A DNA stretch of 64,000 bases from Acidimicrobiales bacterium (lineage in GTDB: Bacteria; Actinomycetota; Acidimicrobiia; Acidimicrobiales; JAUJNH01). Under the pieces are notes generated by a model. It had not been told where the DNA came from. It saw only the letters and a program-made list of their open reading frames with translations, and searched no databases. Within the stretch, counting starts at the first letter, position 1; every line of letters starts with the position of its first letter. The translations under genes were made by a program, and so were the position numbers. Positions 3,201-62,613 of this stretch are shown here, piece by piece. Where the stretch lies: NCBI GenBank assembly GCA_038253125.1, contig JBBSHM010000003.1:956-64955 (forward strand). Direction: 5' to 3'.

Positions 3201-3651
3201 CGAGGAGGTGGCTGCCCTCGGGGTCGGCCACCCCGTTCTGGGGCCGGGACAGGCCGATCGTCAGCTCGGCCCCCACCACCAGCGGCACCCCGAGCGCCCG
3301 GGCCGCCTCGGACGCCCGCACCACCCCGTACAGGCCGTCGTGGTCGGTGGTGGCCAGCGCCTCGAGCCCCAGCCGGGCCGCCTCCTCGACCAGCTCCTCG
3401 GGATGGCTGGCCCCGTCGAGGAACGAGAAGTTCGAGTGGCAGTGCAGCTCGGCGTAGGCCACCGCACCGGCATCGGGGCGGGGGATGAGGTGGCGGGGCG
3501 GGTCATAGGCCAGCCGGTGCGGTGACCACGCCGGGCTGTCCCCCCCGTCGCGCCCCGGCTCCCCGCGGCGGCTGCGCCCGTCGGAACGGCGGTCCGACAG
3601 GGCGGCGTTGACCTCCTGCCAGCTGAGGTCGGGGCGCTGGTCCCATCCCAT
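238..3651 (-). CDS. dnaE2: Error-prone DNA polymerase III alpha subunit DnaE2
   Basis: PHP-domain start YAELHCHSNFSFLDGASHPEELVEEAARLGLEALATTDHDGLYGV plus full-length Pol III alpha similarity. The track ORF (to 4029) has an Arg/Gly-rich N-terminal extension. ATG at 3649-3651 (MGWDQRPDLSW...) gives 1138 aa, and a LexA box lies 19 nt upstream. Confidence 0.9.
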   Translation of the reverse strand: MGWDQRPDLSWQEVNAALSDRRSDGRSRRGEPGRDGGDSPAWSPHRLAYDPPRHLIPRPDAGAVAYAELHCHSNFSFLDGASHPEELVEEAARLGLEALATTDHDGLYGVVRASEAARALGVPLVVGAELTIGLSRPQNGVADPEGSHLLVLADGPDGYARLARTISEAHLRGEEKGRPVLGLEQAAEHLAGHAQVLTGCRKGAVPAALMAAGPAAARLRLDQLVTLFGGDRVVVELWDHGDPLDSARNDALAALAVDAGLAVVATNNVHYATPARRPLATALAAVRARRSLDEVDGWLPPASMACLRSGAEQAHRFARWPGAVAQAATLGRQLAFDLRLVAPRLPDCPVAPGHTEMSWLRHLTEEGATFRYGPRPQTLRECPLPALQGTRSGHCLGEDDINSRAWRQIDHELDVIEQLGFPGYFLVVHDIVEFCRSHDIYCQGRGSAANSAVCFALGITKADAVGLGLLFERFLSPERDGPPDIDLDIESGRREEAIQHVYARYGRQKAAQVANVITYRARSAVRDMGKALGASQGQVDAWSKQVDPWGRLRKTVEGGGHDIPSAVLELAREVEDFPRHLGIHSGGMVICDRPVVEVCPVEWGAMVGRTVLQWDKDDCAAAGLVKFDLLGLGMLTMLHHAVDLIGESTGIEVDLATIGQDPAVYEMLSRADSVGVFQVESRAQMATLPRLKPRCFYDLVVEVALIRPGPIQGGSVHPYIRRRNGEEEVTYLHPLMKRSLEKTLGVPLFQEQLMQLAIDCAGFTPAEADQLRQAMGSKRSSERMEQMRARFAAGAAERDIPPEVIDVLWLKLAAFSSYGFPESHSVSFAYLVYASSWVKLHHPAAFCAALLSSQPMGFWSPQTICADARRHGVAVKGPDVNASRALASIDQEGAVRRGLQEVRTLGEDRAQALAAGRPYADMEDVARRNPALTLANLEALATAGAFSESFSLSRRRALWAAGAVSQSRPDRLAGIVTGSAAPELPGLTPVEEEAFDLWSNGVSAGSPTRFVRQRLNARGVVTARDLEDQVRLPAGTRVLVAGIITHRQRPATAEGTTFFGLEDETGLLNVIVSPGCWAAFRRVARGAAALVVQGRLERKETVVNVVAEKLEQLDLRVSRPGASASAAPPGPPSRDFR

Positions 3652-3669
3652 GGGAGGAGCCACTGTAGA

Positions 3670-3683
3670 CGAACATGTGTTCG
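3670..3683. promoter_or_regulatory. LexA (SOS) box CGAAC-ATGT-GTTCG between dnaE2 and the divergent DUF2277 gene
   Basis: Perfect palindrome matching the actinobacterial SOS box core TCGAAC-N4-GTTCGA, located between the dnaE2 start (3651) and the plus-strand gene start (3789). Confidence 0.8.
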
Positions 3684-3788
3684 CCCCCGCTCCCCCAACA
3701 CCCCACCCCCCGGAACTGTCGGGAGTAGCTGTCGCCTGGCGCAGCACTTCTCCCGACAGAAGCGATGGGGGCGGGGCAGGATGGGGGC

Positions 3789-4031
3789 ATGTGCCGGAGC
3801 ATCCGACCGCTGCACCGATCCGAGGTCGAGCCGACCGACCTCGACGTGCGCGACGCCGCCGTCCAGTACGTCCGCAAGCTGTCGGGGATCCGCACCCCGT
3901 CACGAGCCGACGCCCCCGCCTTTGAGGCCGCCGTCGAGGAGGTGGCGGCCTCGACCGCCCGCCTGCTCGCCGCTCTCCGCCCCGCCCCGCCCGTGCCCGG
4001 CCGGATACCGCTGCGCCACCTCCACCCATGA
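3789..4031 (+). CDS. DUF2277 family protein
   Basis: MCRSIRPLHRSEVEPTDLDVRDAAVQYVRKLSGIRTPSRADAPAFEAAVEEVAASTARLL matches the recalled DUF2277 pattern (MCRxI...AAxQYVRKxSG...AFxxAVxEVA). The start is taken at the internal ATG of track ORF 3765-4031. Confidence 0.65.
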   Translation: MCRSIRPLHRSEVEPTDLDVRDAAVQYVRKLSGIRTPSRADAPAFEAAVEEVAASTARLLAALRPAPPVPGRIPLRHLHP

Positions 4032-4465
4032 CATTCCGGATCCTGCACCTGACCTTTGACTGCGCGGATCCCGGCGCCCTCGCCGACTTCTGGTGCGCCG
4101 TCCTTGGCTACGAGCGGACGCCGCTCGGGTTGGAGATGGTCGCCGAGGCCGTGCCGCCCGACGGAGTCGAGGCGCCCAAGCTGCTCTTCATCAAAGTTCC
4201 CGAGCCGAAGACGGCCAAGAACCGCCTGCACGTCGACTTCGCAGTGCCCGACCGTGAGCCCGCCCACGGCGCTCGGCGCGATCGGGAACGACAGCTCCGA
4301 TCCGTCATCCCGGGTGACGTAGACCCGGTCGACACCTTCATCGGCCCCGCCCCGCACGAAAGCCAGGTTCGTCGCCACGACCTGGCATCCTGCTGCACCT
4401 GGTGCCCGCATGGAAGGTGGTTCTCCGCTCCGACGAGCTCGGTGCCCTCCCGCACCGGGTCGTGA
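4028..4465 (+). CDS. VOC/glyoxalase-like domain protein with a degenerate C-terminal half (possible pseudogene)
   Basis: The first ~77 aa (MTFRILHLTFDCADPGALADFWCAVLGYERTP...KNRLHVDFAVPDRE) look like a glyoxalase-like domain. The rest is Arg/Ser-rich with no recognisable second half, and it overlaps the next gene. Confidence 0.4.
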   Translation: MTFRILHLTFDCADPGALADFWCAVLGYERTPLGLEMVAEAVPPDGVEAPKLLFIKVPEPKTAKNRLHVDFAVPDREPAHGARRDRERQLRSVIPGDVDPVDTFIGPAPHESQVRRHDLASCCTWCPHGRWFSAPTSSVPSRTGS

Positions 4466-5690: not shown

Positions 5691-7673
5691 TCAGTCGTAT
5701 GTGGCCTCGAGCCACCACCGGCCCTGGTCGCAGGCCAGGAGGAGGGCGGTTCCGTCGGAAGCGATGACCTGGATGCGGGCCAGGCGGGAAGCGGCGGCGG
5801 GATCCCACCAGCGCTCCTCGACCGGCCACGGGCCGGCCCAGCCGGACACCTCCAGGGCGCGTGCCGACCATGTCACCCGGGACGGGGCGGCGCTGGCCAG
5901 GCCTCGGCCGGACACCAGGACCGGGGCGCCGGCGGCGTCGACCACCTCGACCGGCTCCCGCTCGGGAGGCACCACGGCCGGCGGGGGCCCGGGGATGCAG
6001 CCTGGCCACGGTGGCACCTCGTCGGCGGCGGCACCTGTGATCCCCGCTCTGTCGGACCGCTCGGGCCCTGTGATCCCCGCTCTGTCGGGCCGCTCGGGCC
6101 CTGTGATCCCCGCTCCATGAGGCGGCTCTAGCTCTGGGCCGCGCTGGGGGCGGCGCACCACAGGTTCGGCCTCCTCGGGGCGTTCGGCCACCGGGCCCAG
6201 CTCGATGGCTGCCCTCTTCGCTTGGCCGCCGGGCTGGGCCGGCTCGCGCTGGTCACCCCACGGAACGAGGGTGGCGCGGGGCAGCGGGCCCCTCCCGCCT
6301 GAGAGCACGGCGGTAACCACCGCCGCCGGGCCCAGCAGGCCCTGAACCCTGGCCAACGCCCGGGACGCCCGCTCGTCCGCCTCGGCGTCGCCACCCCAGA
6401 ACCCCAGCTGGCGGCCACCACCAGGCACCACCTCCTCGGGCACCAGGCGCAGCAGCGTGAGGCCACCACCCTCAGCCCGGCCGCCGACATCCCCCAACTC
6501 GTGCCCTCCGCTCTGCTGGGCCGCTCGGGCCCTCTGCTCCCCGCTCTGCTCGGCCGCTCGGGCCCTGGTGGTGAGCCAGCCGTCCAGCTGCCAGCGCACC
6601 CGTTCGGCGGTGGCACCCGGGGTGAAGCGGCCCTCGTGGCGCCACACCCGGCTGAGGCGCTCGCCGTCGGTGGTGACGGCCTCGATGGTCAGCCGGGTGC
6701 AGGCCAGACCCTGGCGCTCGAGCCGGTCGTGCAGGTCGGCCGCCAGCGTGCGGGCGGCGAAGGCGGCGGTGTCGATACGGTCGGCCGGCGGGTCGAGGGC
6801 CACCTCGGCCACCAGGTCGGGAGGGGGGTCACGGGCGTCGAGCGGCCGGTCGTCGAGGCCGTTGGCCCGGCGCCAGGCCAGCCCTCCGGCAGCGCCGAAG
6901 CGAGCCATGACGTCGACCTCGGAGAGGGCGGCCACCGACCCGAGCGTCCGCAGACCCAGCCGCACCAGCAGCGACGCCAGATCAGGCGCCGCCCTGGCGG
7001 GCGCGCCGAGCGCGTCGCCCAGGGCGGACACGGGCAGATCGGCCAGGAAGGGCCGGGTGGCACCCGATGCCAGCACCAGGATCGGGGCACCCCCGGCCGT
7101 GGCCCGGGCCGCCAGCGAGGCGGCAAAGGCGCCGTCGGCCACCCCCGCCCCGATGTGGGCGGCGGCGCCGCCCAGAACCTCCTGGACCGCCGCCACCACC
7201 CGGGCGGCCAGGGGCTCGTCGCCGCCGAAGTAGCGCGACGGCCCCCGGGTGGCCATCGAGCACAGGCCGGGGCGGGTCAGCTCGATGCGGGGGGCGAAGG
7301 CCTCGATGGCGGCGACCACCGGCTCGAAGGCCCGGGCGTCGCGGGCCGGGTCATGGGCGAGGACGGCCAGGTGGGCACAGCGGGCCTCGGCGTCACGCCG
7401 ACGCATGCCCCGGTGCACGGCCTCGGCCCGGGCCGCCGGCGTGCACGCCACGATGCGCCCGGCGCGCAGGACGACCGCCGGCTCGTCGGCCGGCACCCCG
7501 GCCGCCACCAGCGGCCAGTCGGCGCACCACAGCGCCAAGGTCCGCACCGCCGTCGCCCACGGCCTGATCGCAGAGGCGGGAGCGCCAGCGCCATCCGCGG
7601 GGTCGGTAGTGGACGAAGCCGCGGCGCGGCCCACGTACCCGGCCAGGGCGGCCGCCGCCGGGCCGTGGTCCAC
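5691..7673 (-). CDS. imuB: ImuB, Y-family-polymerase-like mutasome subunit
   Basis: N-terminus LALWCADWPLVAAGVPADEPAVVLRAGRIVACTPAARAEAVHRGMRRRDAEARC is typical of ImuB. The gene immediately follows imuA' (TAG then GTG). It carries two blocks of the 33-bp repeat. Confidence 0.85.
   Translation of the reverse strand: MDHGPAAAALAGYVGRAAASSTTDPADGAGAPASAIRPWATAVRTLALWCADWPLVAAGVPADEPAVVLRAGRIVACTPAARAEAVHRGMRRRDAEARCAHLAVLAHDPARDARAFEPVVAAIEAFAPRIELTRPGLCSMATRGPSRYFGGDEPLAARVVAAVQEVLGGAAAHIGAGVADGAFAASLAARATAGGAPILVLASGATRPFLADLPVSALGDALGAPARAAPDLASLLVRLGLRTLGSVAALSEVDVMARFGAAGGLAWRRANGLDDRPLDARDPPPDLVAEVALDPPADRIDTAAFAARTLAADLHDRLERQGLACTRLTIEAVTTDGERLSRVWRHEGRFTPGATAERVRWQLDGWLTTRARAAEQSGEQRARAAQQSGGHELGDVGGRAEGGGLTLLRLVPEEVVPGGGRQLGFWGGDAEADERASRALARVQGLLGPAAVVTAVLSGGRGPLPRATLVPWGDQREPAQPGGQAKRAAIELGPVAERPEEAEPVVRRPQRGPELEPPHGAGITGPERPDRAGITGPERSDRAGITGAAADEVPPWPGCIPGPPPAVVPPEREPVEVVDAAGAPVLVSGRGLASAAPSRVTWSARALEVSGWAGPWPVEERWWDPAAASRLARIQVIASDGTALLLACDQGRWWLEATYD
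6035..6116. repeat. 33-bp tandem repeat, 2 full copies plus 1 partial (inside imuB, site 1)
   Basis: ctgtgatccccgctctgtcggaccgctcgggcc (6035-6067), ctgtgatccccgctctgtcgggccgctcgggcc (6068-6100), then ctgtgatccccgctcc. Translated as GITGPERxDRA. Confidence 0.95.
6498..6564. repeat. 33-bp tandem repeat, 2 copies (inside imuB, site 2)
   Basis: ...ccctccgctctgctgggccgctcgggcc followed by ctctgctccccgctctgctcggccgctcgggcc (6532-6564). Translated in another phase as RARAAEQSGEQRARAAQQSG. Confidence 0.9.
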
Positions 7674-8618
7674 CTAGCCGCCCAACCCTCTGCGCCGCCC
7701 GTCGCCGTGTTCTGCCCGGACAGGAACCGTAGCCTTGGCACCACCTTCTGCCCGGGCAGCCGTGGCGCCGTTCTGCCCGGGCCGGAACCGTCGTCCTGGC
7801 AGCACGTTCTGCCCGGGCAGCGGTGGCTCGACCACGGCCACCCCGTCGTAGCCGGGGAGCCACAGGTGCACCGACCGCTCGCGGCTGGCGGCGCCCCGTC
7901 CGGTGGCGGCCACCTTGACCTGGCGGGCCTGGAGGAAACCGTGGCCGGCCTCGACGCCGTGCCAGGTGGCCGCCACCACCCGCAGCCGCAGGTCGGCCCC
8001 CTCCACCCACGACGCACCGGCCGGGAGCAGGGGGATGAGCACGCTGCCCCGCTCCCGGGCCCGGGCGACCAGGCGGCGGGCGTCGGGAGCCCGAAGGCCG
8101 GGAGGCACGGCCGCCACCACCAGGTCGATCCCGTCGAGCAGGGCCGCCACCACCGTGGGCCAGTGGCCCAGGACGGCGGCGTCGGGAACCAGGGCCAGCC
8201 GCTCCAGCGCCACGCCCAGGTGGGCGGCCGCCGGGGCGTGGGCCGCAGGCAGGCCGACGACCGCCGCCCACGAGCCGGCCTGGGTGGCGGCGGCCACGAG
8301 GGCGAAGGCCAGGCTGGTGGCCCCGAGCCCCGACCCGCCCGCCACGGTGGCGGTGGACCCCCGGCGCAAACCCTCAGGTCCTGAGGGCAGGGTTCCCCGC
8401 TCCGAGGGGCCGCTCGGGCCCAGGATCCCCCGCTCTGAGGGGCCGCTCGGGCCCAGGATCCCGGCGAGGGCGGGGAGGATCGGGAGGGTCTGATCCCGGG
8501 CCAGGGTGATGGGCGCCACCCGCTCGGCCAGCGCCCGCAGGCCCGCGGCCTGAACAGCCCGGCCCGAGCCACCGTCGTCATCCGGGCCGACTAGCGGCCG
8601 GTTGAGCGCCACGACCAT
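7674..8618 (-). CDS. imuA': ImuA' (RecA-fold mutasome accessory protein)
   Basis: GGSGLGATSLAFALVAAATQAGSWAAVVGLPAAH...GVALERLALVP resembles mycobacterial ImuA'. It is the first gene of the imuA'-imuB pair, with a LexA box 14 nt upstream of the start. Confidence 0.75.
   Translation of the reverse strand: MVVALNRPLVGPDDDGGSGRAVQAAGLRALAERVAPITLARDQTLPILPALAGILGPSGPSERGILGPSGPSERGTLPSGPEGLRRGSTATVAGGSGLGATSLAFALVAAATQAGSWAAVVGLPAAHAPAAAHLGVALERLALVPDAAVLGHWPTVVAALLDGIDLVVAAVPPGLRAPDARRLVARARERGSVLIPLLPAGASWVEGADLRLRVVAATWHGVEAGHGFLQARQVKVAATGRGAASRERSVHLWLPGYDGVAVVEPPLPGQNVLPGRRFRPGQNGATAARAEGGAKATVPVRAEHGDGRRRGLGG
7704..7827. repeat. Two tandem copies (63 and 61 nt) of a palindrome-containing unit forming the 3' end of imuA'
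   Basis: gccgtgttctgcccggacaggaaccgtagccttggcaccaccttctgcccgggcagccgtggc, then gccgttctgcccgggccggaaccgtcgtcctggcagcacgttctgcccgggcagcggtggc. Each contains the palindrome ctgcccgggcag. Confidence 0.85.
8388..8464. repeat. 33-bp tandem repeat, 2 copies plus 1 partial (inside imuA')
   Basis: cagggttccccgctccgaggggccgctcgggcc (8388-8420), caggatcccccgctctgaggggccgctcgggcc (8421-8453), then caggatcccgg. Translated as GPSGPSERGIL. Confidence 0.95.
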
Positions 8619-8631
8619 GGCCTCATCGTAG

Positions 8632-8645
8632 CGAACGTGTGTTCG
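8632..8645. promoter_or_regulatory. LexA (SOS) box CGAAC-GTGT-GTTCG upstream of imuA'
   Basis: Perfect match to the TCGAAC-N4-GTTCGA core, 14 nt upstream of the imuA' start at 8618. Confidence 0.8.
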
Positions 8646-8658
8646 TGACGCTCAGGTG

Positions 8659-9069
8659 TCAGCCCACGAGCTCGTGCTCCACACCGAGGGCGACGTAGGT
8701 GGCCGAGGCTCGACGGTCACGGGTCAGCAGCATCAGCCCGTGGTGCTTCGATGCGGCTCCGACCAGGGCGTCGTACACGTTGCCGCCCGCCACACCGAGG
8801 GCGGGCAGCTGGACGAGGAGGGCGGCGGCCGCCTCGCCGGGCAGGAAGGCAGCGATGGGGAAGCTCCGGCGCAGGATCTCCCCGACCACCTCGGGGCTTC
8901 GACGGGCCGGAGCGGGAAGTCTGGTGAGAACGGAGTACGTCTCAAAGGCGGCATGCCCGGCCAGGCCGAGCCGCCGTCCGGCCATGGCCACCCGGACCGC
9001 CTCGTGATGTTCATGGTCCTCGACGACGAGGGCGACGGCAAGGCTGGTGTCGACGAGGGCGGGCGCCAC
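8659..9069 (-). CDS. vapC: PIN-domain toxin VapC
   Basis: LVDTSLAVALVVEDHE...NVYDALVGAASKHHGLMLLTRDRRA shows the PIN acidic residues. It starts 4 nt after the stop of the upstream AbrB-type antitoxin. Confidence 0.8.
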   Translation of the reverse strand: MAPALVDTSLAVALVVEDHEHHEAVRVAMAGRRLGLAGHAAFETYSVLTRLPAPARRSPEVVGEILRRSFPIAAFLPGEAAAALLVQLPALGVAGGNVYDALVGAASKHHGLMLLTRDRRASATYVALGVEHELVG

Positions 9070-9072
9070 GTC

Positions 9073-9306
9073 CTAACGCTGGTCGCCGTCACGCAGGGCC
9101 TGCACCAGAGCGTCGTCCACGGCCGCTCCGGCCGCCGGTATGACCAGGCGACCGTCCTGTTCGACGACTCCCCCGGCCGCGACCGGTTCGATCCTGATGC
9201 CGTTGCCATCGATCGTCATCTCGACCTCACCAGGGGCCAGGCCGACCCTGTCCCGTAGCGGCTTGGGGATGACCAGCCGTCCGACCCGATCTATCGTCGC
9301 CCTCAT
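9073..9306 (-). CDS. vapB: AbrB/MazE/SpoVT-type antitoxin VapB
   Basis: MRATIDRVGRLVIPKPLRDRVGLAPGEVEMTIDGNGIRIEP is a SpoVT/AbrB looped-hinge motif. The start is taken at the internal ATG (9304-9306). Confidence 0.75.
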   Translation of the reverse strand: MRATIDRVGRLVIPKPLRDRVGLAPGEVEMTIDGNGIRIEPVAAGGVVEQDGRLVIPAAGAAVDDALVQALRDGDQR

Positions 9307-9320
9307 GCCATGAGGATACC

Positions 9321-9354
9321 AGATTGGTGGCAACTAGATGGTAACGAGATGGTA
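9321..9354 (-). promoter_or_regulatory. Candidate vapBC operator: three direct AGAT(T)GGT(A) motifs
   Basis: agattggt (9321-9328), agatggta (9336-9343) and agatggta (9347-9354). The last two are 11 nt apart, in a locally AT-richer stretch just upstream of vapB. Confidence 0.35.
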
Positions 9355-9421
9355 GACGGCGATTCGTCAGCCAGGATGTCCGCCAGCTGCGAGGAGCCGG
9401 AACCGGAAATCCCTGAGCTGC

Positions 9422-10693
9422 TCAGGCGGCGGTCAGCGCCGCCTCGAGCACCGGGTCGGGCTGCAGAGCCACCGCCGGGGCGTCGCCGCCCTGGCCGGCC
9501 AGGGCGGCCGGCAGCAGGGCCACGGCCACGGCTACGGCGGCGGCGGCGCCGCCCCCGCCGAGGGCGACCTGGGCCCCGAAGCGCTGCACCACCCAGCCGA
9601 CCAGAGGGGCGCCCACCGGCGTGGTGCCGAGGAAGACCATGGTGTAGAGCGCCATCACCCGCCCCCTCACCTCACCGGCGGCGACCAGCTGCACCCGGGC
9701 GTTGGCGGTGGAGAAGAAGGCGATGCCGGCGGCGCCCGCCAGGGCGAGGAGGGGCAGGACCAGCACGAGCGAGGTGGTCGCCGCCGCCGCCGCCAGCAGC
9801 AGGCCGGACGCCAGTCCGGCGACCAGCAGCACCCGGTCGGTGGGGCGGCGCCGGCCGGCCACCAGGAGGGCGCCCACGACCGAGCCGAACGCCATCGTGG
9901 CGGTCAGGGCCGAGAACAGGGCCGAACCGCCGCCGTAGGAGCGCTCGGCCAGCACCGGCAGGACGATCGGGAAGTTGAACGAGAGGAACGAGACCGCTCC
10001 GACCAGGAGGAGCGTGCGCCGCAGCACCGGCTCGCCCCAGACGTAGCGCAGGCCCTCGCGCACCTGGCCCCGGCCGGGCCGGGGGCGCGCCGACGGCCGC
10101 AGCTCCTCGACCCGCATGCGGCGGTAGGCCTCGATGACGGCCAGGAACGAGACTGCGTTCACCACGAAGCACCAACCGCCGCCGACCAGGGCGAGGAGCC
10201 CGGCGGCCACGGCGGGCCCGACGATCCGACTGGCGTTGAACAGGGCGGAGTTGAGCCCGATGGCGTTGGGCAGCTGCTCGGGCCCCACCAGCTCGTTGAC
10301 AAAGGCCTGCCGGGTGGGGATCTCGACGGCGCTGCCCATCCCGGAGGCGAAGGCGAGCAGGCCGAGGAGCCACACCCGCTCCGAGCCCAGCAGGGTCACC
10401 GCCGCGAGCAGGGCGGCGACGACGGCGAGTGAGGCGTTGGCGGCGATCAGCAGTCGTCGCTTGTCGAACCGGTCGGCGAGCAGGCCGCCGAACGGGCCGG
10501 CGAGGAGCATGGGGAGCAGCGAGAGGGCGGTGATGACCCCGAGGGCGACGGCTGAGTCGGTGAGCCGGTACACAACCCAGCTGAGCGCCACCACCTGGCA
10601 CGCCGTGCCCGACAGAGAGACCAGCTGGCCCAGGTAGAACAGGCGGTAGTTCCGGCTGCGGAACGAGCCGAAGGTGCGCGAGGCGGTCGACAT
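9422..10693 (-). CDS. MFS transporter (EntS/DUF894-like)
   Basis: FRSRNYRLFYLGQLVSLSGTACQVVALSWVVYRLTDSAVALGVITALSLLPMLLAGPFGGLLADRFDKRRLL, with a 12-TM-like hydrophobic pattern. Confidence 0.8.
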   Translation of the reverse strand: MSTASRTFGSFRSRNYRLFYLGQLVSLSGTACQVVALSWVVYRLTDSAVALGVITALSLLPMLLAGPFGGLLADRFDKRRLLIAANASLAVVAALLAAVTLLGSERVWLLGLLAFASGMGSAVEIPTRQAFVNELVGPEQLPNAIGLNSALFNASRIVGPAVAAGLLALVGGGWCFVVNAVSFLAVIEAYRRMRVEELRPSARPRPGRGQVREGLRYVWGEPVLRRTLLLVGAVSFLSFNFPIVLPVLAERSYGGGSALFSALTATMAFGSVVGALLVAGRRRPTDRVLLVAGLASGLLLAAAAATTSLVLVLPLLALAGAAGIAFFSTANARVQLVAAGEVRGRVMALYTMVFLGTTPVGAPLVGWVVQRFGAQVALGGGGAAAAVAVAVALLPAALAGQGGDAPAVALQPDPVLEAALTAA

Positions 10694-10758
10694 GCTTGCT
10701 CAGTTAACTGCTTAGCACAGCAAAGTGTTCCGGCAGAGCCTTCAGCTCGGCCAGGGCA

Positions 10759-11070
10759 TCAGCCGAAGGTCTTGGGCTCCACGCCTTGGACGTAGTGGGT
10801 GAACAGGCCGCGCACGATGTCGGCCATGCCTTCGCTGGTGCCGAAGGGCTCGAGCTCGACGGTGACCTGGTTGCCGTAGACGTGGACCGCCACCACCCCC
10901 CCGTGCTCGAACAGGCGCCGGGCCAGAACGTCGGGCGGCCGGTCACCGGAGCAGTCCTCGAGCGAGCGGTACCGCTCGTGGCCCATGCCGGTGAGCGGAC
11001 GGTTCACCTCGAAGCGGGTGACGCCGACGCGTCCGGTGGGCTTCTCGGTGACGGCGACTGACTGTCCCAT
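10759..11070 (-). CDS. Small protein, Nfu/NifU N-terminal-like
   Basis: GVTRFEVNRPLTGMGHERY...LARRLFEHGGVVAVHVYGNQVTVELEP...MADIVRGLF has a layout resembling the Nfu_N domain. The assignment is tentative. Confidence 0.4.
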   Translation of the reverse strand: MGQSVAVTEKPTGRVGVTRFEVNRPLTGMGHERYRSLEDCSGDRPPDVLARRLFEHGGVVAVHVYGNQVTVELEPFGTSEGMADIVRGLFTHYVQGVEPKTFG

Positions 11071-11108
11071 CGAGAGTTGAACCTAGACCGTCGGTACGCT
11101 GAGCCGCC

Positions 11109-12374
11109 ATGTCCGACGCCGCGGGGTCAAGACGCGAGCGGGTGCCGTGGCGCACCATCCTCGCCGTGCTGTTCGTGGTGGTGGCCTCGGCCTTCGCCGT
11201 CCTCACCCTGCAGCGCCTAGGGCGGATCATCACGTGGTTCGTGGTGGCAGCCTTCTTCGCCGCCATCCTCAACCCGGCCGTTGACTTCCTGAGCCACCGG
11301 CTGCGGCTGCCTCGGGTGCTGGCCACCCTCGTGGTGTTCCTCCTCGGGATGGCGGCCATGGCGGCGATGCTCTACGCCTTCATCCGGCCCCTGGTCGACC
11401 AGGCGTACCAGTTCTCCGACAACCTGCCGACCTACGTGGCGGAGGCCAGGGCCGGACGAGGCCCGGTGGGCGACCTCGTCCAGCGCTACCACCTGGACAC
11501 CTACGTCGAGCGCAACCAGGCCAAGCTGCGGGCCGCCGTCACCGGGGCGGGCGGACCGGTGGCCAAGGTCGCCTCGGGGATCTTCAGCACCGTCGCCGCC
11601 GTCGTCACCATCCTGGTGCTGATCTTCCTGATGCTCCTGGAGGGACCGAAGGTCATCGCCGGGCTCCTCCACCTCATTCCCCCACGCCACCGCGACCGGG
11701 TCCGCCGCGTGACCCGTGACAGCAACCGGGCCATCACCGGCTACATGTTCGGCAACCTGGCCATCAGCGTCATCGCCGGCATCGCCACCTATCTGGTGCT
11801 GTGGCCGCTCGGCGTGCCGTTCCGTGGCGTCCTCGCCCTGTGGGTGGCCTTCGCTGACCTCATCCCGCTCGTCGGGGCCACCCTCGGTGCTGCGGTGGTC
11901 AGCGCCGTGGCCTTTCTCGACACGCCCCGCACCGGCCTCATCATCGTGATCTTCTTCATCGTCTACCAGCAGTTCGAGAACCACGTGCTGCAGGTCTCCA
12001 TCATGAGCCGCACGGTCGACCTGAACCCCCTGGCCGTGCTGGCCAGCGTGCTGGTCGGGGTCCAGCTGTTCGGGCTGCTGGGCGCCCTCCTGGCCATCCC
12101 GGCCGGCGGCGTGCTGCAGGTCATCTGCCGGGACATCTACGACACCAACCTCGGCATGCTGAAGGAGGATCCGACCCTGGGCAGCGACGAGGTGCCCGTC
12201 TCCCAGGTGCAGGCCCAGGAGGCGGCCGAAGCGGCCACCGCCGCCGACCAGGGTCACGAGCGGGCCATGCCGGCCGCGCCCGAGGTCGAGGCCGAGGTCG
12301 GAGCGTCGCCGCCCGGGCCGTCGGCCGCACCGGTCCTGGGCCCGCCCGCACCGGACCCGGCCACCAGGACGTGA
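11109..12374 (+). CDS. AI-2E family transporter (PerM/UPF0118)
   Basis: AITGYMFGNLAISVIAGIATYLVLWPLGVPFRGVLALWVAFADLIPLVGATLGA...YQQFENHVLQVSIMSRTVDLNPLAVLASVLVG. Confidence 0.85.
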   Translation: MSDAAGSRRERVPWRTILAVLFVVVASAFAVLTLQRLGRIITWFVVAAFFAAILNPAVDFLSHRLRLPRVLATLVVFLLGMAAMAAMLYAFIRPLVDQAYQFSDNLPTYVAEARAGRGPVGDLVQRYHLDTYVERNQAKLRAAVTGAGGPVAKVASGIFSTVAAVVTILVLIFLMLLEGPKVIAGLLHLIPPRHRDRVRRVTRDSNRAITGYMFGNLAISVIAGIATYLVLWPLGVPFRGVLALWVAFADLIPLVGATLGAAVVSAVAFLDTPRTGLIIVIFFIVYQQFENHVLQVSIMSRTVDLNPLAVLASVLVGVQLFGLLGALLAIPAGGVLQVICRDIYDTNLGMLKEDPTLGSDEVPVSQVQAQEAAEAATAADQGHERAMPAAPEVEAEVGASPPGPSAAPVLGPPAPDPATRT

Positions 12375-12625
12375 CGCCTGCTCGGGCCACACTCGAGCTG
12401 GAAGGCCACATCATCGACTCGCTGCTCCTGGCCAAGGTGCTCGACCAGATCGTGGACGACGGCGCCGACTACGGGATCGTCGAGGTGGTCATCGGCCGGG
12501 CCCGCAGCGACCCCAGCCGGGCCGTGCTGGCCCTCACCCACCCACGGGGCGTCGCCGCCCTCGACGACCTCTGCGACCGCCTGGCCGCCCACGGCGCCCT
12601 TCGCGCTCCGGGCGCCGGTGGGTGA
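12371..12625 (+). CDS. Conserved small hypothetical protein
   Basis: TLELEGHIIDSLLLAKVLDQIVDDGADYGIVEVVIGRARSDPSRAVLAL. GTG overlaps the upstream stop (GTGA at 12371-12374), and its own stop overlaps the next gene by 8 nt. Confidence 0.5.
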   Translation: MTPARATLELEGHIIDSLLLAKVLDQIVDDGADYGIVEVVIGRARSDPSRAVLALTHPRGVAALDDLCDRLAAHGALRAPGAGG

Positions 12626-13433
12626 GGAGCTGGCCTGGGGCCGCCGCTTCCTGCTGTGCTCTCCCGACCACTTCAGCGTCGCCTATGAGATCAACCCCTG
12701 GATGTCAACCGAGGTGCCGGTAGACCGTGACCGGGCCCAGGCCCAGTGGCACGGCCTCGCCGCCGCCCTGCAGCAGGCGGGGGCCACGGTCGAGCTGCAG
12801 CCCGCCGACCCGTCGGTGCCCGACCTCGTCTTCACCGCCAACGCCGGGATCGTCCGGGGGCGCACCTTCGTCCCGTCGCAGTTCCGCCACCCCGAGCGCC
12901 AGGCCGAGACGCCGCTCGACATCGCATGGTTCGAAGCGGCCGGCTACGAGGTGCGCCAACTGGTCGGCGGCGTGGGCCACGAGGGGGCGGGTGACGCCCT
13001 GCCCTTCGGACCGGTCCTGGTCTCGGGCTACCGGTTCCGCAGCGACGCCGCCGCCCACAGCCAGCTGTCGACGCTGCTCGGCATCGCCGTGCGCCCGATC
13101 GAGCTGGTTGACCCCCGCTACTACCACCTCGACATCACGTTCTGCCCGCTCGACTCGACCCGAGCCCTGGTGTGGCCCGGCGCCTGGGACTCCTACGGCT
13201 GCACGGTCATGCAGGCCCTGGTGCCTGAGCCGCTCGTCCTCGAAGCCGACGAGGCGGCGGGGTTCGTGGCCAACTCCGTCGTCGTCGGCCGAACCGTCCT
13301 GATGCCCAGCTGCCCATCCCGGGTGGGCCGCCAGCTCGAGGCGTGGGGCTTCACCCCGGTCGAGGTGGATGTCAGCGAGTTCCGCAAGGCCGGCGGCGGC
13401 TGTCGCTGCCTAACCCTCGCCCTGGACACATAG
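12618..13433 (+). CDS. Amidinotransferase / dimethylarginine dimethylaminohydrolase superfamily enzyme
   Basis: RRFLLCSPDHFSVAYEINPWM...YYHLDITFCPLD...FRKAGGGCRCLTLAL, with the C-terminal catalytic Cys motif of guanidino-group modifying enzymes. Confidence 0.75.
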   Translation: MGEELAWGRRFLLCSPDHFSVAYEINPWMSTEVPVDRDRAQAQWHGLAAALQQAGATVELQPADPSVPDLVFTANAGIVRGRTFVPSQFRHPERQAETPLDIAWFEAAGYEVRQLVGGVGHEGAGDALPFGPVLVSGYRFRSDAAAHSQLSTLLGIAVRPIELVDPRYYHLDITFCPLDSTRALVWPGAWDSYGCTVMQALVPEPLVLEADEAAGFVANSVVVGRTVLMPSCPSRVGRQLEAWGFTPVEVDVSEFRKAGGGCRCLTLALDT

Positions 13434-13494
13434 AGCTGGACAGACAGCTATGCACCGCTGGTTGCGGCGCCCCCTGTGGCGGGCGGGCGCGGAC

Positions 13495-14508
<1,014 letters not shown>

Positions 14509-14512
14509 CGGG

Positions 14513-14755
14513 TCAGGCGTCGACGCTGGTCGGCTCTGCCACCGGCGCCGCGGCATGCCGGCGGTGGCGCTGCACAACGACGAGAGTAGCGACGGCGAAG
14601 CCTACCGAGATCACCGCCAGCACCGAGTGGACCGCCTTGAACGGCAGGTTCCGGGTGTCGTCGCGCCAGATGTTCCAGATCCGGGTGACCCACACGTAGA
14701 TCGTCCAGACCGAAAAGGCGCGTAGCAGGAGCGACTGCTTGCTGGTCAGCGGCAC
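14513..14755 (-). CDS. Small integral membrane protein (SCO4848-like)
   Basis: LLLRAFSVWTIYVWVTRIWNIWRDDTRNLPFKAVHSVLAVISVGFAVATLVVV has two TM segments. It is tightly packed between rnhB and lgt. Confidence 0.55.
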   Translation of the reverse strand: MPLTSKQSLLLRAFSVWTIYVWVTRIWNIWRDDTRNLPFKAVHSVLAVISVGFAVATLVVVQRHRRHAAAPVAEPTSVDA

Positions 14756-14765
14756 GGACCCGAAC

Positions 14766-15494
14766 CTAATCCGGGATCCACCCCTGCGTCGCCGCGGGCG
14801 GCTCCCGCCACGTGCGGCCTCCCCACGGGGTGTTGTCCATGAAGACCCAGCTGCGGCGGTGGATGGCGCTCGGGCCGATCCCCTGGAGGACCGCCTTGTG
14901 CTTGGGGCACGGGTAGCCCTTGTTGTCGTCGAACCACCACCACGGGTAGTGCTCGTGCAGCTCTCGCATCAGGCGATCACGGGTGACCTTGGCCAGTATC
15001 GAGGCGGCGGCAATGGACAGCACGGTGGCGTCGCCCTTGATGACCCGGATGGTCGTGCCCCGGCCCACGAAGTCCCAGCTCCCGTCGAGCAGCACCTTGT
15101 CCGGGGTGACCCCGAGCCCGGCGATGGCCCGGCCGGCGGCGAGCCGCTGGGCGGCTGTCATGCCCAGCTCGTCGCACTCGACCTGGCTCGCCATGCCCAC
15201 GTGCCACGCCGTGCACCAGCCGGCGATGCGATCGAACAGCGCCTCGCGCTCCCGCTCGCTCAGCATCTTCGAGTCGCGCACGCCCAGCACCCGGCGGCCC
15301 TGGGGCAGCACGGCGGCGCCGACGGCCAGAGGGCCGGCCCACGCCCCGCGGCCCACCTCGTCGAGGCCGACCACCACCTGGTGGCCCTCGGCCCACATCT
15401 GCTTCTCGAGGGTGAGGGTGGGGGCGGTTGCCCGGGTCAGGGTGCGCCGGCCGGCCGGGCGCAGCAGAGGCGCCTTCTCAAGCGGTGCGACCAC
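14766..15494 (-). CDS. rnhB: Ribonuclease HII
   Basis: VVGLDEVGRGAWAGPLAVGAAVL...VRDSKMLSEREREALF...VLLDGSWDF...IKGDATVLSIAAASILAKVTRD. Confidence 0.9.
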   Translation of the reverse strand: MVAPLEKAPLLRPAGRRTLTRATAPTLTLEKQMWAEGHQVVVGLDEVGRGAWAGPLAVGAAVLPQGRRVLGVRDSKMLSEREREALFDRIAGWCTAWHVGMASQVECDELGMTAAQRLAAGRAIAGLGVTPDKVLLDGSWDFVGRGTTIRVIKGDATVLSIAAASILAKVTRDRLMRELHEHYPWWWFDDNKGYPCPKHKAVLQGIGPSAIHRRSWVFMDNTPWGGRTWREPPAATQGWIPD

Positions 15495-15551
15495 GGTGGC
15501 GACGCTAACCCCTGGGCCGGCGGCGGCTTCGAGCGGCCGGGCCGGGGCTTG

Positions 15552-16574
15552 TCAGGCCAGGCTGACGCCAGGAGGGCCGTCGGCCACCTCGCCGATGACC
15601 GCCCACCCTTCCCCGGCCAGCCGGGCGGCGTCGGCGGTGGGGACGGCGGCCAGCAGGCCCCCGCTCGTCTGCGGGTCGTAGCAGATGGCCTCGTGCTCGG
15701 CGCTGACGCCGTCGGCCACGGTGATGCGGCCCTCCAGGGACGCCCGGTTGCGGGGGTCGCCTCCGGTGCGGACGCCCCGCCCGGCCGCGGCCTGGGCCCC
15801 ATCGAGGAGCGGGAGGGCGGCGGCGGAGAGGCGCAGCGCCACCCCGCCCCGCTCGGCCACCTCCCAGCCGTGGCCGAACAGGCCGTAGCCGGTCACGTCG
15901 GTGCAGGCCCTGGGGCCGGCCCCGCCGTCGACCTCGGCGAGCCTCTCGGCCGCCGCCCGGTTGATCCGGCGCATCCACCCGATGGCCACCGCCTTGTCGG
16001 CCTCGTCCCCGCCGGCCAGCACGATCCCGGTGCCGATCGGCTTGGACAGGACCAGGACGTCGCCGGGGCGGGAGCCGCCCTTGGCCCACACCCGGTCCGG
16101 GTGCACGGTGCCCTGCACGGCGAGGCCGAATATCGGCTCCTCGCTGCGGATGGTGTGACCCCCGGCCACGACGCCGCCGGCCTCGGCCACGATCTCGGCC
16201 GCCGCCCCGAAGATGGCCTCGATGGCCGCCACCGGCAGCCGCTCGGGGAAGGCGGCGACGTTCACGGCCAGGCGGACGCGGCCTCCCATGGCGAACACGT
16301 CCGAGCAGGCGTTGGCGGCGGCGATGGCGCCGAAGTCGGCCGGGTCGTCGACCAGGGGCGGGAAGAAGTCGGTGGTGCTCACCAGGGCCAGGTCGTCGCT
16401 CAGGCGCAGCACGGCGGCGTCATCGAAGGGCGCCAGGCCGACGAGCAGGTCGGAGGCCCCGCCCTCGGCGGCCAGCCGGGCCACCAGGTCACGCAGCGGC
16501 GCCGCCCCCCACTTGGCTGCGCAGCCGCCGCAGGCCGTCCACTCAGTGAGGCGAAGGGTCTCGCTCATGGTCAT
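15552..16574 (-). CDS. selD: Selenide, water dikinase (Cys-type active site)
   Basis: LRLTEWTACGGCAAKWGAAPLRDLV...DDAAVLRL...TTDFFPPLVDDP...AANACSDVFAMGG has the AIR-synthase-like fold typical of SelD. Confidence 0.8.
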   Translation of the reverse strand: MTMSETLRLTEWTACGGCAAKWGAAPLRDLVARLAAEGGASDLLVGLAPFDDAAVLRLSDDLALVSTTDFFPPLVDDPADFGAIAAANACSDVFAMGGRVRLAVNVAAFPERLPVAAIEAIFGAAAEIVAEAGGVVAGGHTIRSEEPIFGLAVQGTVHPDRVWAKGGSRPGDVLVLSKPIGTGIVLAGGDEADKAVAIGWMRRINRAAAERLAEVDGGAGPRACTDVTGYGLFGHGWEVAERGGVALRLSAAALPLLDGAQAAAGRGVRTGGDPRNRASLEGRITVADGVSAEHEAICYDPQTSGGLLAAVPTADAARLAGEGWAVIGEVADGPPGVSLA

Positions 16575-17487
16575 GCGGAGGACCGTACCCAGGCGGCGGA
16601 GGTTGTGTGACCCATCCGGGCGGCGCCCCCGGAGGCCCGGGAGGCCCGGGAGGCCCCGGCGGCTGGTTCCGGCGCCGGCTGCGACGGATCAGGACGACGA
16701 TGAGGATGATGATGCCGATGAGCACCAGCAGCCCGCCCCCGACCAGGACGGCGACGATGATGAGGACGGTGCGGGTGTCGTTTGTCTGCACCCCCTTGTC
16801 GAGCGCCGGGTCCCGGGCTCCGAAGCGCCGCTGCAGCTCGGCCCGGTCCGCCTGGTAGGTGCCGTGGCCGCCGTAGCCGTTGTTGCAGATGACGCTGAGC
16901 TGCTCGATCCGGAACGGCAGGTTGCGCCACACCACCCCGGCAGCCTCGGCGGCGGCGGCGTCGAGGTCCTCGGTGTCCTTCTCGACGATGACCCGGAGCG
17001 AGTCCCCCGGCTCGAGCTGGACGTCGGGGACGCCGAACCCGGCGTCATCCAGCGCCCGGACGGTCGAGACGCTCCCCCGCACCACGCCGCACCCGACCAA
17101 GAGGAGAAGGGCGGCGCACAGCACCAGGCCCAGCACTCGACTGCCGGAGGGGCCTCCGCCGGGCCGGATCGCCCGGTGGTGGCCCCGGCCGAGACGGCTG
17201 CGACCGGAGCGACCCTGTAGGGCGACGGCGCCGGGCGTCGGGCTGCGGCCCTCGGTCGCCGGGGCGGGCCCCGACAGGGCGATGGCGCCGGGCCGCGGGC
17301 CGCTGCCGTCGGCCGCCGGGGCGGGATCCAACGTCGCTAGGACCACCGCGGCCCGAAGGTCGAGCGCATGACAGGCATGGCCATGGGTCCGACGGTAGGC
17401 GGCCCGGGGAGGGCCGCACGAGTCGCCGGCCCAGCAGCCGCGCACCGGGTTTGGCGCCCGCACGGCTGGCCTGATCGCGTGGCTCAT
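16543..17487 (-). CDS. Membrane-anchored hypothetical protein (possible lipoprotein) with Pro-rich C-terminal tail
   Basis: The ATG overlaps the upstream stop (ATGA at 17484-17487). An alternative GTG at 17136 gives VLGLVLCAALLLLVGCG (lipobox-like). A C-terminal TM (LIIVAVLVGGGLLVLIGIIILIVVLI) is followed by PPGPPGPPGPPG. The gene overlaps the selD start by 32 nt. Confidence 0.5.
   Translation of the reverse strand: MSHAIRPAVRAPNPVRGCWAGDSCGPPRAAYRRTHGHACHALDLRAAVVLATLDPAPAADGSGPRPGAIALSGPAPATEGRSPTPGAVALQGRSGRSRLGRGHHRAIRPGGGPSGSRVLGLVLCAALLLLVGCGVVRGSVSTVRALDDAGFGVPDVQLEPGDSLRVIVEKDTEDLDAAAAEAAGVVWRNLPFRIEQLSVICNNGYGGHGTYQADRAELQRRFGARDPALDKGVQTNDTRTVLIIVAVLVGGGLLVLIGIIILIVVLIRRSRRRNQPPGPPGPPGPPGAPPGWVTQPPPPGYGPPHDHERDPSPH
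17219..17332. repeat. 57-bp tandem repeat x2
   Basis: agggcgacggcgccgggcgtcgggctgcggccctcggtcgccggggcgggccccgac (17219-17275) and agggcgatggcgccgggccgcgggccgctgccgtcggccgccggggcgggatccaac (17276-17332). Confidence 0.85.
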
Positions 17488-19253
17488 GAGAGCTCGACCG
17501 TGCCCCCGCCGCCGGAGCCGGCGGGCGGTGCCGGGGGGCTGAGCAGGGCCTCACCCCGGGGCTCGTCTGTCAGGAACCTGGCGTCGAGACCGGGGGCGGT
17601 GAGGCGCAGGCCCGAGTTGGCCTCCCACAGCAGCGCCGGCCGTTCCCCGTGCCACCGCACGGCGTAGGAGAGGCGCACGCCGCCGGACAGGACAGCGTCG
17701 TCGACCCGTACCGGCTGGCCCCGCCACTCGTCTGGCAGCACCGGCAGCAAGACGGCGTGGCCGGGCTCCGGCTCGGTGACCAGCAGGTCCCTCACGAGGA
17801 GGAGGAACGCGGCGGTGGCGGCCGGGCTGTGGCCTCGGCCGTCGCTGCCGGCACCGGTCCTGGGGTGGACGTGATCGGGCCAGGCCCAGGTGGGTGCGCC
17901 GACACCGACCAGCCAGGCCAGGCGGCCCAGGGCGGCAGGGTCACCCGAGGCCACCTCGGCGGCCGCGGCCGCCATCGTGGCCACCACATCGTAGCCGGCC
18001 GGCCCCCTGGCGGCCGCGTGAGGTGTTGCCACCCGGCCCGGGCGATCGCCGATGGCCGATGCGGCAGCGGTCGTAGGCGGCGGGAGCCCTGGGCCCTCGG
18101 CTCCCCGCCCTGCCGGGCCGCTCGGGCCCGCGGATCCCCGCTCTGCCGGGCCGCTCGGGCCCGCGGATCCCCGCTCTGCCGGGCCGCTCGGGCCCTCGGC
18201 GCCTCGCGCAGGGGGTACGAAGGAATTCTCGGATGATCGGGCCGGCGCGCTGCTCCGGGCGTCGCTCGTCATCGTCGATCGACCGGTGGCAGCCAGGGCA
18301 GCCCGGATGAGCTCCGCCTCTTCGGGCGTCGCGGCATCCTCCGGTCCGATCAGGAGCAGGCTGCGACATGCGGCGTCAAAGGCGTGTTGCAGCTGGCCAT
18401 CGGGCACGTCGATGCGCACGCCGTCCCGGCCCGGGCTCTGGGCCTTCCAGCCGCGCACGGCAGCGGTCGACGACGCCCGCCCGTCCACACCTCCCGACGG
18501 GCCGCCCAGCGGAATCACCGCCCGGACGGTGGTGCGGTGGGCCACCGGGACCAGCACGGCCACCGATGCCAGGCCCTCATGGCACACCGCCGGCGCCGTC
18601 CTCGGGCCGGCGGCGCCGCTGAGCACCAGTCCCGCCACGTCGCCCGAGGCTGCGGTGGAGGCGGCCATCCGCCGGGAAGGCCCTGACAGGATCAGGGCGG
18701 TGCGCCCGTCGACCAGGACCTGCGAGCCCTCGACAGCCACCGTTGCCACGCTGGTGGCCCCGAGCGGGTCGTAGGGGCGGATGACCAGCGCCAGGGCGAA
18801 GGGCGAGGGTGAGCGGTTTTCCACCTCGATGACGAGGAAACCGGGGACGCCGAAGCAGCGGTGCACGGCGTCACCGCTTGGGACGCGAAGCACGGTCTCG
18901 ACCACCGGGGTCGAGTCGACCAGGGACTGGCGCACCGCCGGCTCGCGGCTGGGCAGGCGCCACCGGTCGTCGGCGCCCACCCACCAGTCGAGCGACCACC
19001 CGCCGAGGCGGGGGGTGACCAGGCCGGCGGGGTCGACGGCGGCGGCCGGCCCGCCGGACGGCCCCACCAGCGTCCACCGACGACCGGTGCGGTTGACCAG
19101 GCCCTCGCCGGCGAGGCGGGGGACAAAGGCGACACCGCTCTGATCCACCTGCCGCCCCAGGCCCCAGGGCAGCACCCAGCCCGCGTCCACCAGCCGGGCC
19201 GTCCGCTGCGGGCGGTCCAGGTCGCCAGGGGGGCGGCGGCCCGGCCACAGCAC
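17484..19253 (-). CDS. Hypothetical protein (C-terminal part faintly six-hairpin-glycosidase-like), carrying a 33-bp repeat block
   Basis: Long ORF 10 nt downstream of gpsA on the same strand. Its composition is unlike the antisense artefacts (for example FLVIEVENRSPSPFALALVIRPYDPLG). No confident family assignment. Confidence 0.55.
   Translation of the reverse strand: MLWPGRRPPGDLDRPQRTARLVDAGWVLPWGLGRQVDQSGVAFVPRLAGEGLVNRTGRRWTLVGPSGGPAAAVDPAGLVTPRLGGWSLDWWVGADDRWRLPSREPAVRQSLVDSTPVVETVLRVPSGDAVHRCFGVPGFLVIEVENRSPSPFALALVIRPYDPLGATSVATVAVEGSQVLVDGRTALILSGPSRRMAASTAASGDVAGLVLSGAAGPRTAPAVCHEGLASVAVLVPVAHRTTVRAVIPLGGPSGGVDGRASSTAAVRGWKAQSPGRDGVRIDVPDGQLQHAFDAACRSLLLIGPEDAATPEEAELIRAALAATGRSTMTSDARSSAPARSSENSFVPPARGAEGPSGPAERGSAGPSGPAERGSAGPSGPAGRGAEGPGLPPPTTAAASAIGDRPGRVATPHAAARGPAGYDVVATMAAAAAEVASGDPAALGRLAWLVGVGAPTWAWPDHVHPRTGAGSDGRGHSPAATAAFLLLVRDLLVTEPEPGHAVLLPVLPDEWRGQPVRVDDAVLSGGVRLSYAVRWHGERPALLWEANSGLRLTAPGLDARFLTDEPRGEALLSPPAPPAGSGGGGTVELS
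18096..18194. repeat. 33-bp tandem repeat, 3 copies (inside hypothetical ORF 17484-19253)
   Basis: ctcggctccccgccctgccgggccgctcgggcc (18096-18128), cgcggatccccgctctgccgggccgctcgggcc (18129-18161), and an identical copy at 18162-18194. Translated as GPSGPAERGSA. Confidence 0.95.
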
Positions 19254-40056: not shown

Positions 40057-40122
40057 CACACGCCAATCTTCACACGACAATCTTCACACGACGACCTTCA
40101 CACGACGAGGTTCGCACGTCCG
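40053..40122. repeat. Five tandem 14-bp units (core TTCACACGAC) in the BFN / msrA divergent region
   Basis: tcatcacacgccaa / tcttcacacgacaa / tcttcacacgacga / ccttcacacgacga / ggttcgcacgtccg. The first unit overlaps the BFN start codon. Confidence 0.85.
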
Positions 40123-62584: not shown

Positions 62585-62613
62585 ACTATTGCTCGGCGGA
62601 CATATCGTGTCAA
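62585..62613 (-). promoter_or_regulatory. Candidate sigma-70-type promoter of the giant gene
   Basis: On the minus strand: TTGACA (62608-62613), a 17-nt spacer, then AATAGT (62585-62590), about 75 nt upstream of the start codon. Confidence 0.4.

Follow-up and report, generated by a model that had tools for sequence, protein, structure and literature searches.

A 33-nt DNA unit that is repeated in tandem inside the genes imuA' and imuB of an Acidimicrobiales bacterium is a member of what seems to be an undescribed family of short dispersed repeats. Genomes of this order, a widespread and poorly studied group of Actinomycetota that is known above all through metagenomes, commonly carry the family. 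It is a family at the level of DNA, with members in coding as well as in non-coding sequence. The stretch that we analyzed, hereafter the window, comprises 64,000 nt of assembly GCA_038253125.1 (contig JBBSHM010000003.1, positions 956-64,955, forward strand). A full-text literature search returned no published description of the core sequence of the unit or of such a repeat in Acidimicrobiia. The explanation that we hold to be moderately probable is that the unit is a short interspersed repeat of the kind of the MIRUs (the interspersed repetitive units of mycobacteria), which would be copied at the DNA level to sites of microhomology, amplified by slippage, and kept where it is harmless.

An earlier note on this DNA had described a 33-nt unit at four sites in a single orientation, translated in all three codon phases. 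The unit, its sites, and its orientation are borne out. Tandem Repeats Finder places period-33 arrays in the window at 6034-6115, 8388-8462, and 18091-18199, and a 26-nt search pattern for the unit, CCCCGCTCTGNNGGNCCGCTCGGGCC, has nine matches with at most three mismatches, all on the + strand, against 0.01 expected from dinucleotide-preserving shuffles. The four sites hold nine full units together with some partial units, and a profile built from the nine finds no further copy in the 64 kb except a degenerate unit at 6101-6147. Two of the sites lie in imuB (5691..7673, - strand), which encodes a Y-family polymerase-like subunit of the mutasome (Pfam IMS; its orthologues in Acidimicrobiales are named ImuB). 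Site 1 (6035..6147, -) consists of perfect 33-nt units at 6035-6067 and 6068-6100 and of the degenerate unit as a third, stands at codon offset 1, and reads GITGPERPDRAGITGPERSDRAGITG. Site 2 (6499..6564, -) consists of two units at offset 2 that read RARAAEQSGEQRARAAQQSG and come directly after a conserved RVRWQLDGWL helix. The site in imuA' (gene 7674..8618, -; NCBIfam NF058630, ImuA', E = 1.3e-38) covers 8388..8462 (-) with two units and a partial one at offset 0; it reads GILGPSGPSERGILGPSGPSERGTL and is N-terminal, before the conserved ImuA' domain. The fourth array (18091..18199, -) has three units at offset 0, giving GPSGPAERGSA three times, in ORF 17484-19253 (-), an open reading frame (ORF) that orthologue comparison identifies as a conserved hypothetical gene. 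One DNA unit is read as GPERxDRAGIT, RARAAEQSGEQ, and GPSGPxERGxx in the three phases, and all four sites are coding, so that the window is without any spacer copy.

The codon offsets of 1, 2, 0, and 0 uphold the claim of three phases, whereas the claim of translation is less certain at the fourth site, where the codon-usage score gives a weak coding signal around the array and where the ORF lacks a segment, about 100 residues long, that hardly varies among its orthologues (...LWSRQRTDGSFDEP...HLWALGEHLRLRPD...VAAEGWL..., around 18030-18330). About 300 nt of non-homologous DNA, the array included, stand in place of that conserved segment. A frameshift was considered as the cause and rejected, because no other frame restores the conserved sequence; the segment has been replaced, and the ORF may be a damaged or remodeled copy.

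Read on the gene-sense strand, the unit consists of a 24-nt core, GGCCCGAGCGGCCC-NN-CAGAGCGG, and a semi-variable tail of 9 nt, GRRGCNCAG, which in the flank logo is often followed by the beginning of a next core, GGCCC. The two central bases of the core are free (TT, CT, GG, GT, and others occur). Adjacent cores are separated by a linker of 9 nt in 24 of 28 cases, whence the 33-nt period; we also encountered periods of 30, 34, and 46 nt as well as a run of a 9-nt sub-repeat. A tail is closer in sequence to the other tails of its array and to the flank than to the tails of other sites. The core can be folded into a stem of 5-6 bp, GGGCC-N5-GGCCC, at -12.4 kcal/mol, which is no better than for shuffled sequences (z = -0.6), and variation in the stem is scarce, GGTCC being the only variant seen. 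The 33-nt unit has no terminal inverted repeats, its core contains no ATG, GTG, or TTG and no internal coupled ORF, and Rfam 15 has no family at the element in the window or in eight element-bearing loci.

Two loci depart from this plan. At locus L064, about 20 nt downstream of the core match at 1759-1782 (+ strand of the locus), stand at least five extra tandem copies of the 9-nt sub-repeat GCTCGGGCC, by which the hairpin half of the element is lengthened, a run that shows slippage within the unit. In L045 (about 6660-6742) and L063 (about 2678-2760), loci that differ in genome and in gene context, some 40 nt of similar sequence precede the core and contain a 7-bp stem with compensatory changes (GAGCTGC...GCAGCTC versus GAGTCAC...GTGGCTC) that is not found at other sites; it may represent a longer composite sub-family. 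We looked for a longer parent element by comparing all upstream flanks with each other and rejected it, as only orthologous pairs and neighboring degenerate units emerged and the hairpin of L045 and L063 is not general.

One scan of species-representative genomes with the 24-nt degenerate core pattern yielded, among the matches listed, at least 115 loci. Counted from record titles, at least 85 of these lie in about 28 assemblies labeled Acidimicrobiales, Acidimicrobiia, Microthrixaceae, or unclassified Actinomycetota, and the richest metagenome-assembled genome (MAG) contributes up to 11 loci among the matches listed. We estimate from base composition that about 0.003 matches per genome would arise by chance. 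The remaining matches listed, about 30, are single occurrences in unrelated GC-rich taxa, which by our own estimate is roughly the chance level for a collection of this size. Two of the ImuB orthologues of the window are encoded in genomes that the scan also matched (JAUJNH and JBBPYZ). The pattern has no matches in viral contigs, and a phage origin accordingly finds no support.

Most members of the family lie between genes. We classified 96 arrays from Acidimicrobiia-type loci among the matches listed, with coding frames taken from a codon log-odds model that was trained on the long ORFs of these loci and that recovers the genes of the window. Intergenic or gene-boundary positions account for 74 of the 96 arrays, coding positions in sense orientation for 18 and in antisense orientation for two, and two arrays are at a locus edge. 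The 18 coding sense arrays are distributed over phases 0, 1, and 2 as 8, 5, and 5, or as about 7, 4, and 2 independent sites when orthologous duplicates are left out; one is an insertion in a UvrD-like helicase (L038). Three imuA' arrays, though coding, were put in the boundary class by the codon model. The inference of the earlier note that conservation is at the level of nucleotides is thereby strengthened, in that the core occurs in three phases in the window and again at independent coding sites elsewhere, while most members are non-coding.

Where an array is intergenic or at a boundary, the downstream gene lies in sense orientation in 54 cases and in antisense orientation in 10. A start codon follows 0-22 nt past the core at 34 of 52 sites and the upstream stop codon ends a median of 6.5 nt before it, so that the element fills the spacer. 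At L106, L027, and L073 the element is read through by the upstream frame, whose stop is part of an ATGA overlapping the next start codon. The genes downstream are varied and include those for an amidohydrolase, XdhC, a P450, a HemL-type aminotransferase, YebC, PyrB, NuoL, an aldehyde dehydrogenase, MoaC, and a response regulator; this functional diversity rules out a regulon. Arrays of two to five units occur at many loci, all as direct repeats, with a single inverted pair (L075) among the 96 arrays. No transposase lies between the copies of that pair; the genes in the region are those for a redoxin and a poly-gamma-glutamate hydrolase, and next to them is one for an FkbM methyltransferase.

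Within imuA' and imuB the unit turns over. An alignment of 27 ImuB orthologues places the site 1 block only in the window, P0004, and P0006, whereas site 2 carries one to about five copies in close orthologues and none in distant ones, and element-type peptides appear at further positions in other relatives; the blocks are lineage-specific and are absent from most close orthologues. In four relatives that were fetched by protein rather than by pattern, all element copies within about 20 kb sit in imuA' or imuB. The imuA' site holds no copy in L118 and L119, one in L116, and two in both L117 and the window. At site 1 of imuB, units are missing from L116, L117, and L119 but present in L118 and L122, with different central bases in each filled allele (GA in the window, TA in L118, CG in L122) and with nearest relatives that are empty in each case; such scattered filling reflects either recurrent insertion at a hot spot or repeated loss. 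Between ImuB proteins with 90-98% identity, of which two come from a single sample, there are differences of exactly one 11-residue block at three places, where 0/1, 0/1, and 1/2 units are present. In the DNA each amounts to a net insertion of 33 nt, and one inserted piece consists exactly of a 24-nt core plus a 9-nt tail. Units are gained or lost singly between near-identical strains, and the copy-number-variable blocks that the earlier note had suspected in ImuA' and ImuB are real. Its suggestion of a disordered linker also fits the AlphaFold model of ImuB (mean predicted local distance difference test score, pLDDT, 67), in which site 1 falls within a segment of pLDDT<50 at residues 419-565 and site 2 is at the fraying end of a helix at 352-387.

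Other repeats are also present in the same proteins. A second tandem block of 8-9 residues (24-27 nt), which reads (E)PAGSGGRG in alignment A1 (columns ~350-380) and APAGAGGRG in alignment A3 (columns ~262-272), differs in copy number between close ImuB orthologues, with P0010 one copy short, and matches no frame of the 33-nt unit. In the 3' part of the window's imuA', a direct tandem duplication of 61 nt at 7709-7827 (2.0 copies, 86% match) encodes a ...PGQN...PGRRFRPGQN... tail.

Comparison of empty and filled alleles suggests how units could arrive. The empty allele of imuB site 1 reads ...AAGCGG|NNN|ATGGGG...; in the filled allele the new core is flanked on either side by AGCGG(G)AGT. The empty upstream ImuB site, GGTCCGGCG, comes near to the beginning of the core; the imuA' site reads GGCCCGGGCC when empty; and in L090 an empty spacer shows CCGGAGTGA in the Shine-Dalgarno position, at the very place of ...GCGG-GAGTCGA in L045. 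The sequences of these empty target sites thus resemble part of the element. Flanking 9-mers are more alike at the same site than between sites (3.6 versus 2.9 of 9 positions, a value that 0 of 2000 shuffles reach). Flanking repeats of 6/9 or better are present at about 12 of 65 single-copy sites, and a target-site duplication of fixed length, being limited to this minority, was rejected as a general feature.

We propose that new units would arise when an existing one is copied under the guidance of homology, by template switching or by short-patch gene conversion, and that the targets would be sites that are already partly like the unit, such as ...AGCGG, GGCCCG, or a Shine-Dalgarno-like GGAG. 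Targets of this last kind would explain both the sense orientation and the adjacency to start codons. Replication slippage between the repeated tails would afterwards lengthen and shorten the arrays, and selection would purge all but the harmless copies, which are those in multiples of 3 nt in disordered linkers and those in spacers. A spacer copy would survive where its purine-rich, GGAG-like tail preserves the ribosome-binding site, and the ImuA' and ImuB linkers of the window would be merely tolerant landing sites.

Two other accounts of the family have been overtaken by the data. Protein-level repeats, selected for a peptide function such as a flexible or interaction linker in ImuA' and ImuB and alike in DNA only secondarily, would suit the position of the blocks in linkers and the preserved reading frame, but the same DNA yields three unrelated peptides, about three quarters of the arrays of the family lie outside the body of any gene, and most close orthologues are without the blocks. 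This account is refuted by the phase analysis together with the non-coding copies, and we regard it as very improbable. Hardly credible at all is an artefact of assembly or binning, or a set of unrelated local duplications that high GC content has made alike. Such an origin could draw on the fact that all of the sequences come from MAGs and metagenome contigs and on the single chance matches in unrelated GC-rich taxa; it is refuted by the recurrence of the 24-nt core in dozens of independent assemblies from different studies, and it is at odds both with the 11 loci of the richest MAG when set against the chance rate and with the length of the arrays, which at 66-130 nt are shorter than a sequencing read. 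A difficulty for the copying that we propose lies in the core itself. Its 22 fixed positions are identical across lineages whose conserved genes are 66-70% identical. In the window, L117, and L118 no change is seen in the core at imuB site 2, where their divergence of 27-38% at four-fold degenerate sites would lead one to expect about 6.6 differences; the tail, by contrast, has diverged, and the L119 core is decayed. Since copying within a genome cannot hold a sequence constant between lineages, the constancy points to a conserved factor that recognizes the core or to a function of the core. The copying model does not account for a core that is identical in deeply diverged lineages. Further points weigh on the same side: the copying step is inferred, with neither an enzyme nor a donor copy identified; the empty and occupied alleles amount to five pairs, of which L045/L090 site A is without clear microhomology and has about 40 extra nt; loci found with an exact pattern hide diverged members and bias the counts toward conserved copies; the gene calls at the loci derive from our own codon-usage model rather than from curated annotation; and every genome is a MAG or a metagenome contig.

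The main rival, which carries substantial weight although we consider it less probable than copying and on the whole unlikely, is that the core is a functional cis-element on mRNA or DNA, whose hairpin and Shine-Dalgarno-like tail would serve operon punctuation, transcript stability or processing, or translation start, or else a binding site for a protein. Selection would then keep the spacer copies, and the coding copies would, with the same reserve, be by-products of whatever spreads the motif. A function of this kind would account for a core that is perfectly kept in deep lineages and at orthologous sites while tail and flanks diverge, for the near-constant sense orientation with a start codon 0-22 nt downstream, for the purine-rich, GGAG-like tail, and for the nature of the sole stem variant, in which GGTCC would retain a G-U pair in the sense RNA. 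It sits poorly with functionally unrelated downstream genes, with copies that turn over between near-identical strains and the one that decayed in L119, with coding copies in all three phases, with a hairpin no more stable than shuffles, with the absence of an Rfam family, and with a window in which no spacer copy is present. A non-autonomous transposon, of the MITE type (miniature inverted-repeat transposable elements) or of the type of repetitive extragenic palindromic sequences (REPs) and their paired form, REPINs, moved in trans by a transposase (a REP-associated tyrosine transposase, RAYT, an IS200/IS605-like enzyme, or another) that recognizes the GGGCC-N5-GGCCC hairpin, appears more doubtful. 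The family is dispersed and multi-copy with a small GC hairpin in its unit, the core behaves as if a trans-acting factor recognized it, being kept in some lineages and decayed in others, and flanking 9-mers of one site are more alike than those of different sites. Against this stand the lack of terminal inverted repeats and of a conserved GTAG, the direct tandems with their one inverted pair per 96 arrays and no transposase between its copies, the scarcity of good flanking repeats at single-copy sites, the absence of copies from viral contigs, targets that resemble the element itself, and an orientation that tracks genes far more than a replication-strand bias would predict. Between these two in probability, and speculative, we place the idea that a conserved factor acting in trans recognizes the 24-nt core and copies it, in a single orientation, to sites that look like a Shine-Dalgarno sequence or like the unit itself. 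If so, the unit would be among the smallest mobile units known and a standard form of operon punctuation upstream of start codons in Acidimicrobiales. In a bolder form of this idea the copying may be error-prone template switching in SOS repair, with imuA' and imuB both its agents and its frequent targets.

The earlier note had drawn attention to the mutasome, and three of the four window sites do lie in mutasome genes; the element itself is not mutasome-specific, as it occurs at many loci per genome across Acidimicrobiales. The third mutasome gene of the window, which encodes a DnaE2-like polymerase (238..4107, -; Pfam PHP, DNA_pol3_alpha, finger, and HHH_6 domains), has no match to the element profile. 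In the distant Acidimicrobiaceae-type ImuB proteins P0067 and P0093, long unrelated low-complexity tandem repeats (TPTAD..., DPHAARADQPARAA...) occupy the same linker before the C-terminal domain (A1 columns ~700-900). That linker is a general hot spot of repeat expansion, and because the distant ImuB proteins carry unrelated tandem repeats there, tolerance of the linkers is the best explanation for the clustering in mutasome genes. The gene directly upstream of imuA' in the window (8659-9072, -) encodes a PIN-domain toxin; in L117 and L123 the PIN gene upstream of imuA' is paired with a MazE-type antitoxin gene, and no such pair is present in L116, L118, or L119.

Several further features of the window concern repeats of other kinds. 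A giant ORF of 3159 residues at 53030-62509 (-) contains many calcium-binding nonapeptide repeats of the repeats-in-toxin (RTX) type (Pfam HemolysinCabind, E = 1e-97), which account for the 27-nt and 54-nt periodicities that Tandem Repeats Finder detects at 54455-56790. Between 52 and 64 kb the GC content falls to about 0.67-0.69 and the GC skew turns positive. Three AT-richer tandem repeats, all apparently non-coding, could be operator-like sites: 14 nt x3.6 at 40056-40106 (TCACACGACAATCT), 18 nt x2.1 at 62596-62632 (GCGGACATATCGTGTCAA), and 23 nt x2.3 at 63591-63642, which contains the palindrome GGGACAAATGTCCC. A hexamer repeat, CCGGCT x9.7, lies at 13563-13622.

For Acidimicrobiales this is a new repeat family, and one that fits no classical repeat type cleanly: it combines very short length, tandem arrangement, orientation with genes, adjacency to start codons, and tolerance within proteins in three phases. 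It explains the 11-residue indels and the length variation in ImuA', ImuB, and other proteins that confuse annotation and alignment, and it warns against taking low-complexity peptides such as GPSGPSERG for functional motifs, as they arise as by-products of a DNA element. The arrays also offer markers, similar to variable-number tandem repeats, for separating co-existing strains in metagenomes. The combination of turnover with an invariant core raises the questions of what recognizes the core, how such small units are copied, and whether they have any role in translation initiation.

Comparison with known systems places the family near several of them. Rickettsia palindromic elements, which the earlier note had named as a likeness, are reportedly (Ogata and colleagues, in 2000) about 100-150 nt long, palindromic, and inserted singly. 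They share with the present family the property of being nucleotide-level repeats that lie in frame within genes and are translated as extra segments at tolerant positions, whereas the present unit is 33 nt long, tandem, equipped with a hairpin of only 5-6 bp, and mostly non-coding; with the spacer before a start codon as its usual place, this half of the comparison has lost ground. The small dispersed repeats (SDRs) of cyanobacteria are said, after work by Elhai and colleagues in 2008, to be about 20-30 nt long and to lie within and between genes. They are, like the present units, very small mobile repeats in and between genes, in a different phylum and with a different sequence, and to our knowledge they are not described as 33-nt in-frame tandem arrays or as neighbors of start codons. 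A tandem-repeat domain of a protein is built on one motif, whereas the present unit gives three peptides by three phases. MITEs differ in that the present unit is without terminal inverted repeats and shows no general target-site duplication of fixed length. REPINs are inverted pairs and extragenic (PMC3116915). The likeness to REPs and REPINs lies in short GC-rich hairpin repeats at many loci per genome that are conserved as a population, as if recognized in trans; the differences are at least 18 coding sites, an orientation that follows the genes, and the lack of an inverted architecture or a GTAG, and at the L075 inverted pair, the locus inspected in this respect, no associated RAYT gene was seen.

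The other likeness that the earlier note had named, to MIRUs, has proved the closer one. A passage in PMC12548453, with reference to Supply et al. 1997, describes MIRUs as mobile units that have start codons as their insertion points and remain coupled to the gene downstream, and it ascribes to the MIRU an internal ORF that is translationally coupled to the downstream gene through a -4 overlap. The present unit differs in being 33 nt long and found in Acidimicrobiia, whereas MIRUs measure about 46-101 nt and are found in Mycobacterium, and also in that its core is without an internal coupled ORF and that its in-frame copies within genes occur in all three phases. Both are nevertheless short dispersed actinobacterial units in direct tandem arrays of variable copy number, and both follow the orientation of the flanking genes and lie at or next to start codons within operons with downstream expression spared; at a few sites (L106, L027, and L073) the likeness extends to the upstream frame, which ends in an ATGA overlapping the next start. 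By description rather than by sequence comparison, the MIRU would thus appear to be the closest known system.

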